Shown piece by piece: positions 58,611 to 64,000 of a stretch of 64,000 bases of DNA. Source of the stretch: Stylophora pistillata (taxonomy: Eukaryota); NCBI RefSeq assembly GCF_002571385.2, contig NW_019217875.1:187379-251378 (forward strand), given 5' to 3'. The first letter of the stretch is position 1. Each line of letters begins with the position of its first letter. The notes beneath the pieces are model-generated. The model was not told where the DNA came from. It searched no databases and was given only the letters and a program-made list of their open reading frames with translations. The position numbers were made by a program, and so were the translations under genes.

Positions 58611-59850
58611 GTGGAGGAAAGAAACAAATAAACTACGCTTTCATCCCGACAAGCCTGTTTCGTGGTTGCCCACCCATTAGGGGATTTAATAAGAATATTC
58701 TTTACCATCACTTCTTACATACAAAATAATTTACATAATAACAATAATAAACATAGATCTAATCTATGCGACGCGAGGTTTAACAGTTCAGCTGTTGCGT
58801 ATGAGGGCTTTGTTTCTATGGCGGAAAGAAGACACGAGTTCATTATTACGTTTGTTGAGTGTAGAAAGTTTCGGTCGGTAAATGATTAGAGACTTTTCCT
58901 TTAGGCAGCGGTTGCATCTTTTGCTTGAGCTGTTGAACGGTGAATGCGTAGACAGGATGCGCCATGAAATATAGTGTTCGATGTTGTTGTCTTTGAGAGT
59001 CCAGATGTACTTGCTTAGTTCAGGTGAGTTTCTGTGTTTAGAGTGGCGGAATGATGCGGTATGGTTTCGGTATCTTGTTTTGAAGTCGTTTTCCTTGAGT
59101 CTGATGTATTTGTCTGTTGTGTTGTCAGTTATCGTTGCGTGTGACTGTAGCTTGGTAGATGACTGACGATTGTAGGCAGTTTCCTTCGAGTGGGCATGTG
59201 TTCTTTTGCCGGCAGTTGCATGTCTTCAAGTTCTTGTCTTGAGTGGTATTAGGGTTAGCTGTGGCGGTGTCGTTGGCTTGCGTGTATGGCTTTAGAATCT
59301 GCTTATTGTGGTTATCAATTATCTGTTTGGCGTTATTCATGCAGCTGTATCTTATTTTTATGGTGTTTCGGTTGAAGATTTTTCGGAGCTTGTTATCTTT
59401 AGGGAAGTGCTTGTCTATTAGGGCGAGGAACTTGTATCCGCTGTTAGTACTGGTGTTTTTGCTAAATGGAGGGGATGTACCAGATGGTGTAGTTGCGTTG
59501 TCTGTTTTTCCGTCTGTTTGTTGTTGGAGGTTCATACTGTAGTGTGTAGTGGTATCCGCTTTCGTCGATTGCTATCTGGTATGGAGGGACGGCTTGGTCA
59601 AAGGATGCTCTGTCGGAAGATAGGGAAGAAAGGCTTTTGTTGATGCCGGCGGGAATGTTCTTTGTAGTGATGGGCGGGTGCTTGCTCTCGCGTTAGACGT
59701 ATTGAAGTTCGGTGTTCGGTTTAGTGAAGGGCTGATAGGTGCTTTGGTTGAGGTTAAATGTGACTTCTAGGAAGTTAATGATTTGTTTGTTAGCTTCTAT
59801 GGTGATGCGTAGTCCGTTATTATTAAAGATGCGGCATATTTCTTTCTGTA
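58610..59850 (-). mobile_element. Penelope-like retroelement, 5'-truncated and degenerate (RT C-terminus plus GIY-YIG endonuclease)
   Basis: Translates to ..NGLRITIEANKQIINFLEVTFNL.., ..FLALIDKHFPKDNKLRKIFNRNTIK..YSCM.., CNCRQKNTCPLEGNCLQSSVIYQATV, FKTRYRNHTASF, ELSKYIWTLK, with frameshifts and stops. Confidence 0.9.
58643..58685 (-). ncRNA. Minimal hammerhead-ribozyme-like motif (core-mutated) at the 3' end of the Penelope element
   Basis: Minus strand ATCCC-CTAATGG-GTGG(GCAA)CCAC-GAAA-CAGGCTTGTC-GGGAT. Helix I is ATCCC/GGGAT, helix II has a GNRA loop, followed by GAAA and a GUC cleavage triplet. The core has 2 substitutions versus CUGAUGA. Confidence 0.65.
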
Positions 59851-60825
59851 TGTGTGTCCGTATCGCATTGTGGCGTACGAAGATGCCGAAGTAACATAAT
59901 TTTTCATTGCTGAGGTAAAATAAATATAAAGCTTAACTTCAGTGGCTTGTGAAGAGGTCTGTCTTATGTATTTACAAATCATAATATACACCACCANNNN
60001 NNNNNNNNNNNNNNNNNNNNNNNNNNNNNNNNNNNNNNNNNNNNNNNNNNNNNNNNNNNNNNNNNNNNNNNNNNNNNNNNNNNNNNNNNNNNNNNNNNNN
60101 NNNNNNNNNNNNNNNNNNNNNNNNNNNNNNNNNNNNNNNNNNNNNNNNNNNNNNNNNNNNNNNNNNNNNNNNNNNNNNNNNNNNNNNNNNNNNNNNNNNN
60201 NNNNNNNNNNNNNNNNNNNNNNNNNNNNNNNNNNNNNNNNNNNNNNNNNNNNNNNNNNNNNNNNNNNNNNNNNNNNNNNNNNNNNNNNNNNNNNNNNNNN
60301 NNNNNNNNNNNNNNNNNNNNNNNNNNNNNNNNNNNNNNNNNNNNNNNNNNNNNNNNNNNNNNNNNNNNNNNNNNNNNNNNNNNNNNNNNNNNNNNNNNNN
60401 NNNNNNNNNNNNNNNNNNNNNNNNNNNNNNNNNNNNNNNNNNNNNNNNNNNNNNNNNNNNNNNNNNNNNNNNNNNNNNNNNNNNNNNNNNNNNNNNNNNN
60501 NNNNNNNNNNNNNNNNNNNNNNNNNNNNNNNNNNNNNNNNNNNNNNNNNNNNNNNNNNNNNNNNNNNNNNNNNNNNNNNNNNNNNNNNNNNNNNNNNNNN
60601 NNNNNNNNNNNNNNNNNNNNNNNNNNNNNNNNNNNNNNNNNNNNNNNNNNNNNNNNNNNNNNNNNNNNNNNNNNNNNNNNNNNNNNNNNNNNNNNNNNNN
60701 NNNNNNNNNNNNNNNNNNNNNNNNNNNNNNNNNNNNNNNNNNNNNNNNNNNNNNNNNNNNNNNNNNNNNNNNNNNNNNNNNNNNNNNNNNNNNNNNNNNN
60801 NNNNNNNNNNNNNNNNNNNNNNNNA

Positions 60826-61845
60826 CATATGTTTCATATGTTTGTTGTTGTTTGATTTATCATCTACGGGTTTATGTCGAATTAATTTGATGGCCTGCTC
60901 CCAGTTGGCTTGTTAGCTCAATTGGTAGAGCGCTGCACTAGTATCGCAGAGGTCAGTGGTTCGAATCCCGTACAGGCCTGAAATTTTTTTCAGGTCTGAT
61001 TTTCACTATTGCTCAAATAGTGCTTTACTGCGAAGGATCGTGCACATATACGTTTCATAACCGCAGTTCATACATATGTTTCATATGTTTGTTGTTGTTT
61101 GATTTATCATCTACGGGTTTATGTCGAATTAATTTGATGGCCTGCTCCCAGTTGGCTTGTTAGCTCAATTGGTAGAGCGCTGCACTAGTATCGCAGAGGT
61201 CAGTGGTTCGAATCCCGTACAGGCCTGAAATTTTTTTCAGGTCTGATTTTCACTATTGCTCAAATAGTGCTTTACTGCGAAGGATCGTGCACATATACGT
61301 TTCATAACCGCAGTTCATACATATGTTTCATATGTTTGTTGTTGTTTGATTTATCATCTACGGGTTTATGTCGAATTAATTTGATGGCCTGCTCCCAGTT
61401 GGCTTGTTAGCTCAATTGGTAGAGCGCTGCACTAGTATCGCAGAGGTCAGTGGTTCGAATCCCGTACAGGCCTGAAATTTTTTTCAGGTCTGATTTTCAC
61501 TATTGCTCAAATAGTGCTTTACTGCGAAGGATCGTGCTCATATACGTCTCATAACCGCAGTTCACACATATGTTTCATATGTTTGTTGTTGTTTGATTTA
61601 TCATCTACGGGTTTATGTCGAATTAATTTGATGGCCTGCTCCCAGTTGGCTTGTTAGCTCAATTGGTAGAGCGCTGCACTAGTATCGCAGAGGTCAGTGG
61701 TTCGAATCCCGTACAGGCCTGAAATTTTTTTCAGGTCTGATTTTCACTATTGCTCAAATAGTGCTTTACTGCGAAGGATCGTGCTCATATACGTTTCATA
61801 ACCGCAGTTCACACATATGTTTCATATGTTTGTTGTTGTTTGATA
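60826..61845 (+). repeat. Tandem array of 247-bp units, each containing a tRNA-like (Thr-AGT-like) sequence and a Pol III terminator
   Basis: tRNA-like starts at 60907, 61154, 61401 and 61648 (period 247). A-box TAGCTCAATTGG, B-box GGTTCGAATCC, acceptor stem GGCTTGT/ACAGGCC, T7 run downstream. Units are nearly identical, and the array abuts the gap 59997-60825. Confidence 0.92.
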
Positions 61846-61995: not shown

Positions 61996-63177
61996 ATGGG
62001 TTTTCAGCTTGTCAGAATTGGTCAAGAATTCACAGACTTTGCTTTCAAGAATGTTTGTGAAAATGCGACCGAAAAGGACCTTGACTCGACAGCGCCAGTC
62101 GTATATGAAGTTATCACCGCAAGTTGTGCTGCGATGTTCTATTTGGTTATGTTCTCCTTGGGCATTTTCGGTGTTTGCTCCAGGTACTGTGCTAGAATCT
62201 CTTCTTCGCAAGGAGTGCTCTTTGTATTTTTCGTAGGGGTACTAATTACCTGTATAAATGCATTCACAAAGGCAAACAATCTCTGGGTGAAGGTGAGCTT
62301 CCGGCTCTTCACAGATCTAGTCATTGGAATTTTTTTCCCGATCTTTGGTGCCTGGCGTTTTTTTGAAATCCCAAACAGAGCTCAAGGAGAAGCCGACCCG
62401 CCGGGGAATGATAGACTGACTCTTGGTAAACAACAGCCTTCCATGGGTCTGGTAGTTTCCTTATTAACTTTTCCTCTGGTCATTATCGAGATTGTGCTGT
62501 TTGTCGCATCCCTGAGCTCCAACATAACAGACGAGGCGAAAGGAAGGTTGACCGTTTCAAAGTGGCACTATGTTAACGCGGACAAGTCTTTTTTCCTTTC
62601 TCAAAAGATTTTCCAAGTTTTTACCTATCTCTATCTGCGGAACACTACCATTTCCCAGGGTAAAGAGGAGAATGTTCAGTTTTATTTCAGATTATTGTCT
62701 TTTTTCAACTTTACCGAGTGGATAGACGCGCGAGTAAATGTAGAAGACGACATAGCTTTGAGTGGAATCAGTGCAGAAAATGATGGCTGGTTTAATTTAT
62801 TGACAGTGCTATACACAGCACTGATCATAGATTATCGTTTATTGTGTTCATTACTATTCCTTGAACATTCCATTGAAGTTCAAAATCACAACGCAGACCC
62901 GGCTAATGGGAATGATAATGGCGGCGGTAATCAAGAAATGTCGCCTTGTGATGAAATCAAAAGAGTTTGCGGTAATGCTCTTGGCAGTTTCTGTCTCATA
63001 GCCCCTGTATTCTGTGCTTTATATTTTGTGCGTGCATTCGATCTAAAACCATGGGTCAACATACTTGCTATTATTGTCAACGTTGTAATTACTGTTTGTG
63101 GAATTTGTCTCCTCCATTACAACGACTTGAGGGCCGATCCCAATCAACATAAAGAACCGAAAGGTGTTAAAATAATG
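61996..63177 (+). CDS. First large coding exon of a polytopic membrane protein, divergent otopetrin-like (gene continues past window end)
   Basis: Open frame of 394 codons from ATG 61996 to donor ATG|gtaagt at 63177/63178. About 9 hydrophobic segments. Motifs QKIFQVFTYLYL, LSFFNFTEW and TALIIDYRLLCSLLFLEH recall the otopetrin Q/N/Y helices. The CDS itself is well supported; the family assignment is tentative. Confidence 0.75.
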
Positions 63178-64000
63178 GTAAGTCTCCTTAAATTTATAGG
63201 TAAGGTAAGGTAAAGTCTTAAATTTATATGACAACTTAAAAAATGATTGATTTAAGTTAATATTTACGTCTCCTATAAGCCCCTTACAGTTCATTTCGAT
63301 GCCAAGACGTCGGTATCACAGAACGTTTTCCGAGAAATTTGTACGTTGGTGAAAGATTTCAGCGGTCGACGTTTTCATCGACATTGTCCTCAGTCTACTT
63401 GAAGAACCACCATATCTTTCTCCGCATACTCATTTCACGTTTATGGTCCATGCAATAGTGCAAATTAAGAGTAAAATCTGCTAAAATACCAGTTTGATTG
63501 CCGAAATGAGGTGAGAGTGAGATTTTCAAATCAAATTGTTATTATTTCTCGACTCTATCGACTTTGGCTAAGATCGCTTCGGGATCTATTAAATTGTGTT
63601 ATATCCGAATATGAGCCGCTGTTGAAAAGACTTTGATTAAAAAACTGTGCGGAAGCTGTTCAAGAACTTGTTGAATTGTGACTGTTCATTTGTAGGAATG
63701 AAGGCCTCCTCATTAAACTTCGTTTTGTATTCATCATAAACACGTGTCCTGAAAAGACACGTAGTCAAAGAATTAAAACGTAATAACAGCTGAAAGACAG
63801 AAAGACTAGGACTAAATTTGCGCTAGCAGAGTCTGTTGAGCGGTTCTGAAGGATCTCGATGTTATTTTATGTTTACAGCCGTTCTCAAGGATTTCGATGT
63901 TAGTTTATTTTTGGTGTTTCGTCTGGCCAACCACTGTGTGTCAAAGTAAACAAACGCAATAATGGGCAATACTCGACCCTTTTTTACCCTCTTATAGGTT

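Follow-up and report, generated by a model that had tools for sequence, protein, structure and literature searches.

The site at which protons cross otopetrins is debated: one model places it in a pore within the C-barrel (PMC6483595), another at a Glu/His bridge between the two barrels (PMC11343839). In the path proposed in PMC11343839, a proton passes from a glutamate on TM6 to a histidine on TM12 between the barrels, aided by prolines, by a phenylalanine that moves aside and by an aspartate on TM9 that binds the histidine once it is protonated; the TM6 proline serves the opening step in mOTOP2. According to PMC6483595, Glu-to-Asp replacement retained activity and His mutants were dead, most Gln and Asn mutants of the XtOTOP3 C-barrel gave virtually no current, and mutants of the TM9 Asp desensitised slowly. 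The FYR box has been described as a mark of all ODP proteins (PMC2268672). In the accessible text of PMC13183375, otopetrins are named only as an unclassified family.

pH control in corals bears on calcification, symbiosis and acidification. The genome of the stony coral Stylophora pistillata encodes an ordinary single-exon otopetrin with a PF03189 match, for which one locus was found (C430:198616-199920; L022:664-2565). This coral's copy and hydrozoan or jellyfish copies are 57-62% identical, and the EY, FFRFH and TM9 Asp marks are kept in 19/19 rows of ordinary cnidarian otopetrins. The coral gene is a plain candidate for proton transport.

Here we analyse a second, multi-copy family, starting from a gene in a window of 64,000 nucleotides (G000:C92:187379-251378; positions without a contig label are window positions). 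The gene resembles otopetrins in fold and relay residues, yet departs from them in Pfam score, helix count, C-barrel triad and FYR box; because it differs in all four, we file it as a variant rather than as an otopetrin member.

Gene structure and transcription

The gene is spliced and transcribed, and RNA contigs cover its first exon. The coding part of exon 1 (61996..63177, plus strand) supplies residues 1-394 of a 582-aa protein, covering TM0-TM8 and the start of TM9; its 394-codon frame runs from the ATG at 61996 to ...GVKIM at 63177, where the splice donor GTAAGT follows. Exons 2 and 3 were located with full-length relatives of 533-568 aa. Exon 2 (C92:251376-251704, plus strand) begins at 63998, with its first codon (63998..64000) in the window and the rest beyond it, and exon 3 (C92:252300-252537), also beyond the window, carries P521, G525, F526 and H529 of TM12. 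The three exons, joined by script, form an open 582-aa frame. Intron 1 (63178-63997, plus strand; GT..AG, 820 bases) is joined in X1 RNA contigs, and X2, X3 and X17 RNA contigs have exon 2 letters after 63179; X1 additionally holds contigs that run across this intron. The intron 2 joint, likewise GT..AG, is present in X1 and X5 poly(A) RNA contigs. The C-terminal tail here (C92:252480-252537) finishes with an Arg-Gly repeat, a feature absent from the aligned full-length relatives.

Upstream of the gene, at 60825-61844, lie four head-to-tail units of 247 bases that end 152 bases before the ATG; every unit includes a gene resembling tRNA-Thr(AGT). The unit has at least 233 genome matches, many of them 100% identical, and forms tandem arrays on dozens of contigs, which points to a very young mobile tandem repeat that carries a tRNA. 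Three broken frames at 58788-59932 (minus strand) resemble the end of a Penelope-type retroelement, a likeness that no Pfam match supported.

Predicted fold and topology

As the original prediction had proposed, the protein has strong structural similarity to otopetrins, and no other membrane-protein family gave a better match. The AlphaFold2 model of P0012, a full-length relative 54% identical to exon 1, was built from 104 alignment rows and has 13 long helices (pLDDT 87.8, pTM 0.85). The best 12 chains in VIA-align were all otopetrins (Z 21.0-24.7, rmsd 3.9-4.5, 342-406 residues aligned at 9-11% identity), with the next fold at Z 9.8; these alignments are colinear, TM1 to TM12, from model residue 60-68 to about 537. 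Foldseek placed otopetrins at ranks 1-9 (best E 9.3e-4). The window's own residues 30-297 gave a model (pLDDT 89.6) with seven long helices, in agreement with the seven hydrophobic segments noticed earlier in this block; a 19-residue hydropathy scan (cut 1.2) found only 5/7 of them, missing the Q and N helices on account of their polarity. When this N-block was compared with 48,161 chains by VIA-align, the top four were otopetrins (Z 14.9-16.1, rmsd 3.2-3.9, 196-203 residues aligned) and the next scored 10.9, whereas Foldseek on the N-block alone returned no match at E<=0.001. The Atlas, compared through relatives of the gene's protein, contains an independent model of a Hydractinia member with TM 0.62 to an Otopetrin cluster, and it also has a cluster of cnidarian proteins of which 16% carry PF03189. 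The ABCC TMD0 fold was considered and rejected, since its matches (Z up to 11.3) span five helices only.

In the predicted models, the protein matches the double-barrel fold of two homologous six-helix halves, although the internal repeat of the halves is weak (P 0.002-0.003). Two six-helix barrels in otopetrin order are thus predicted, preceded by an extra helix. The N-barrel, TM1-TM6, comprises residues 72-296 (62209..62883, plus strand; N-block model). It is followed by the expected polar N/G/D-rich linker (62884..62952, plus strand), which is likely cytosolic, and by two more helices before the intron, TM7 and TM8 (62965..63111, plus strand; from hydropathy and the P0012 model), the first of the C-barrel. 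Otopetrins are homodimers; a homodimer prediction for P0012 residues 38-536, run without an alignment, scored 0.00, a value that weighs neither for nor against a dimer in this family.

The extra N-terminal helix, TM0 (62092..62178, plus strand; residues 33-61, helix 4-32 of the N-block model), has no otopetrin counterpart: helix 26-60 of the P0012 model lies outside all 12 otopetrin alignments, and N-block alignments begin at model residue 33-45 in 12/13 rows. The count is therefore 13 helices against the twelve of otopetrins. Ahead of TM0 is a glycosylation sequon, N23-A-T (62062..62070, plus strand). A sequon falls within the last 30 residues before TM0 in 59/63 rows, versus 25/74 for the linker and 10/41 for the C-tail, and Lys/Arg counts alternate in the way that an N-terminus on the outside would predict, save in the TM3-4 loop; the rows in both counts are related, hence not independent. 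We infer a protein of 13 helices with its N-terminus probably outside and its otopetrin core in the normal orientation.

Sequence comparisons and family range

Sequence profiles give a different picture from the models. PF03189 did not match exon 1 or seven full-length relatives at the Pfam cut-off of 27.8 bits, and matched 1/104 aligned members at 19.1 bits (E 6.7e-4), which is under the cut-off and no better than unrelated membrane families; the profile-level similarity that the original prediction named as a check is absent to this extent. No other fitting Pfam family scored above cut-off for exon 1, the full-length relatives or the 104 aligned members. Comparison of the family with 19 cnidarian otopetrins by hhalign was not significant (E 0.13), and sequence and profile searches of solved structures returned nothing significant. 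Inventories based on Pfam overlook these genes.

The exon 1 protein has 189 homologues at E<=1e-3, and an alignment of 95 rows shows no variation at Q207 or N238 (another count gives N238 in 71/72), so the features observed in exon 1 are not due to chance. Named sequences make up 6 of the 120 homologues listed, all 6 from stony corals. A profile search gave 252 clusters at 50% identity, with 150 of the 252 listed; 12 of the 30 clusters looked up carry names, and all 12 are cnidarian (Hydractinia, Clytia, Exaiptasia, Acropora, Paramuricea, Xenia). The cnidarian range accordingly refers to 12 named clusters of 30, the other 18 being nameless and 102 of the 252 falling outside those listed. Cnidarians without a skeleton are among the named members, and every named member is annotated as 'uncharacterized' or 'hypothetical'. 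A search of the literature, mainly outside subscription titles, returned no description of this family; annotation tables in supplements, which were left out, might list the genes. The family is best read as a likely proton channel of a new otopetrin branch, which may be either deep-branching, as the original prediction suggested, or a duplicate that evolved fast.

Proposed relay residues and polar network

The acid and the histidine of the proposed bridge are both present, one on each barrel. Asp279 lands on the catalytic TM6 Glu in 4/4 structures and His529 of TM12 on the catalytic His in 11/12 chains, the register being obtained by counting from where each alignment ends, on the assumption that the last helix contains no gap. 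The acid and the His are about 9 A apart in CeOTOP8 and 13-15 A in mOTOP2. Zebrafish and chicken residue numbers were taken from 10.1101/542308, except that chicken E265 and H549, like mouse Y548 and worm Y564, were worked out from residues nearby. The TM6 position is D/E in 74/75 alignment rows, the TM12 His is kept in 45/51 and a Pro at His-8 in 39/49, and the relay residues are retained in members down to about 20% identity. Asp279 belongs to the motif D279-Y280-R281 on TM6 (62830..62838, plus strand), which combines an Asp at the relay-Glu position, the triad Tyr and an Arg that in otopetrins is otherwise confined to the FYR box of the C-barrel; besides the acid, Y is conserved in 71/75 rows and R in 71/74, and with the helix laid on the otopetrin C-half Tyr280 coincides with the FYR tyrosine in 8/8. 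The mOTOP2-type TM6 proline is replaced by Ala in 66/74 rows. Downstream of this motif, 46 bases (62841-62886) encoding the DYRLLCSLLFLEH core are almost identical in the gene and its neighbour G2, whose proteins are 57% alike; this may reflect either strong constraint or gene conversion.

The QKIFQV, FFNFTEW and LIIDYRLLCSLLFLEH motifs from which an otopetrin had been suspected are all in exon 1. On TM4, Q203-K-x-x-Q207 (62602..62616, plus strand) includes Q207, by motif the likely triad Gln (Q203 in 69/72 rows, K204 in 69/72, Q207 in 71/71). On TM5, N238-x-x-x-W242 (62707..62721, plus strand) includes the likely triad Asn, again by motif (N238 in 71/72, W242 in 68/72). The N-barrel thus has a Gln-Asn-Tyr triad of Q207, N238 and Y280, with the Tyr placed by register and the Gln and Asn by motif. 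E165, Q203, K204, Q207, N238, Y280, R281 and E290 of this barrel are 86-100% conserved, the strongest conservation in the protein. The set Q203-K-x-x-Q207, N238, Y280, R281 and E290 is patterned like E429-K-x-x-Q433, N528, Y571 and R572 in the C-barrel of the zebrafish protein, bearing out the suggestion that the first half blends N- and C-type signatures: a polar set of C type (QKxxQ, N, DYR) is found in the N-barrel.

A second repeat had been expected downstream, and a second six-helix barrel is indeed encoded in exons 1-3; the Q/N/Y triad expected with it is not. Its positions hold Leu451, no conserved TM11 Asn, Phe526 and Leu527, and the core of the C-barrel is hydrophobic. The column of Leu451 is Gln in 32/59 rows, mostly in Asp-type members (see below), and that of Phe526 is Phe in 44/50. 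In place of the FYR box the protein reads G-F-L, and Arg is outside the five commonest residues at its column.

C-type marks in the N-barrel might also arise from circular permutation, with the halves of an otopetrin swapped. The single weak Pfam match falls on the C-half of PF03189, and in one comparison 8/9 otopetrin rows matched the isolated N-block through their C-half. The full-length model is nevertheless colinear from TM1 to TM12, the acid is still on TM6 and the His on TM12, and the wide search aligned the N-block to the N-half in 4/4 rows with an equal or higher Z. Scores of the halves against the 19 cnidarian otopetrins (hhalign and HMM) were weak and out of register, and so cannot tell which half is closer. 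Permutation is already disfavoured, and we regard it as very improbable.

Members of the family differ at the start of TM9. K392 (63169..63171, plus strand) likely stands in place of the Asp tied to desensitisation, Asp509 of XtOTOP3, a position assigned from motif spacing only; in its column, located in the same way, Lys occurs in 38/70 rows and Asp in 18/70, including the paralogue on C405. In a quick tree, midpoint-rooted and with the otopetrin outgroup left out, the Lys-type rows, this gene among them, fell in a 27-row clade (SH-aLRT 99) that includes stony corals and Exaiptasia, and the Asp type grouped with hydrozoans and the C405 paralogue. The Lys-type clade bears introns and is expanded in stony corals. 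The paralogue (C405:90593-92347; L021:5591-7348, minus strand) is an intronless gene for 585 aa that keeps the TM9 Asp and the TM10 Gln, and is the most otopetrin-like copy of the new family in the genome.

Tandem cluster and state of this copy

A tandem cluster on C92, at 249-303 kb, begins with this gene. G1 and G2 are intact, G3 has a frameshift, G4 has stops and a frameshift, and exon 1 of G7 is disrupted; the cluster also includes one copy interrupted by N and one inverted fragment. Outside the cluster, C36 carries a three-exon copy and C405 a single-exon copy; further copies are on two small contigs.

Such a setting raises the question of whether the family works as proposed while this particular gene, as part of a birth-and-death cluster, can be dispensed with or is in decay. 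The broken copies G3, G4 and G7 are consistent with decay, as is the young repeat that ends 152 bases upstream of the ATG, and two raw RNA runs (sampled at ~2/100) contained almost no reads of the gene. Of 34 differences listed between run contigs and exon 1, 27 alter the protein (pN/pS 1.1; nonsynonymous sites make up 78% of exon 1 sites), a comparison of mixed-label contigs, unpolarised and without a control gene. One X5 contig carries a stop at W242, and the identical stop is found in pseudogene G4. As read from these contigs, the putative allelic differences of this copy have no purifying signal. Against decay, the 582-codon frame is open and both introns are spliced, a sister sequence 74% identical exists, dN/dS between the gene and G2 is 0.35, and the listed differences touch none of nine N-barrel core residues (E165, Q203, K204, Q207, N238, D279, Y280, R281, E290). 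We think decay of this copy unlikely, though deserving of serious weight.

Discussion

The reading we lean towards, with some reserve, is that the gene belongs to a cnidarian family with the predicted fold of a 13-helix otopetrin and likely conducts protons by an inter-barrel relay. A proton from outside would bind Asp279 on TM6, pass to His529 on TM12 and exit to the cytosol, or travel the opposite way, as the gradient dictates; release would follow a flip of His529. More speculatively, Gly525, at the position of the Phe563 that must move aside in CeOTOP8, might leave room for this flip, and Lys392, in place of the His-binding Asp, might slow desensitisation. In this scheme the Q/N/Y/R network of polar residues, which steadies the machine, would lie in the N-barrel rather than the C-barrel. 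The role would likely be to sense or relieve pH changes at the cell surface, in a family that gains and loses copies.

Several results speak against this reading: the absence here of the C-barrel triad, which is essential in XtOTOP3 (PMC6483595), the Ala that replaces the TM6 proline in most rows, the failure of sequence and profile searches to connect the family with otopetrins, and the mostly protein-altering differences of this copy. The otopetrin fold could instead have been put to another job, with the polar N-barrel serving as a pore or binding site for a different ion or small solute, or with the protein sensing pH at little flux. The lost triad would fit such a job, as would the peak of conservation in the N-barrel beside a hydrophobic C-barrel core, and anions are reported to pass through human OTOP3 as well (PMC13579931). 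The relay residues, one per barrel, are nonetheless retained in register, and the Pro and His of TM12 would be needless if only one barrel worked; we consider a change of job a minority prospect.

Proton conduction by the relay also admits a broader and more tentative formulation: an unannotated second cnidarian otopetrin lineage arranged as a mirror image. The polar network required in the C-barrel of known otopetrins would lie in the N-barrel, with the C-barrel closed off, and protons would still cross by the Asp/His bridge; in hexacorals the lineage would have expanded into a birth-and-death array whose pH sensors or proton exits desensitise slowly.

The original prediction saw, for a coral host, a candidate for pH regulation or calcification. 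In the latter case the protein could be a channel removing protons from skeleton-forming cells like sea-urchin Otop2l (PMC13000164). Homologues and run labels mark the host as a stony coral, a group in which the Lys-type clade has expanded, and a sustained flux would be well served by slow desensitisation. However, the family is present in Clytia, Hydractinia, Exaiptasia, Xenia and Paramuricea, Exaiptasia falls inside the same Lys-type clade, and the ordinary otopetrin is a simpler candidate. Because the family occurs in cnidarians without a skeleton and the genome has an ordinary otopetrin as well, a calcification-specific role is unsupported and to our mind improbable.

For the preferred reading, the family offers a natural test of the route that otopetrins use: with the bridge kept and the C-barrel triad gone, a single recording would tell the two models apart. 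Several unannotated channel-like genes per genome also join the short list of candidate coral proton pathways.

The ordinary cnidarian otopetrin (OtopLc-like in Hydra and Hydractinia) shares the genome and the predicted fold class with the new family, which differs in having several copies, shares about 20-30% identity over that span and has no significant profile match to it. Sea-urchin Otop2l is likewise of the otopetrin class and from a marine calcifier; its function and cell type have been shown (PMC13000164), whereas the new family is known from sequence and models and extends beyond calcifiers. Solved otopetrins comprise zebrafish OTOP1 (6nf4, 9mff), mouse OTOP2 (8ug6-8), chicken Otop3 (6nf6), Xenopus OTOP3 (6o84) and C. 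elegans OTOP8 (8ug4, 8ug5). Unlike these, the new family, at 9-11% identity, has TM0 and a likely outside N-terminus, GFL instead of the FYR box, no C-barrel triad, Asp for the relay Glu, Ala where TM6 has its Pro, Arg beside the Tyr of the same helix and, in this gene's clade, Lys for the TM9 Asp. Like them, it is predicted to have two sets of six helices in the same order, with an acid on TM6 and a His on TM12, Gln, Asn and Tyr in the N-barrel and a Pro at His-8.
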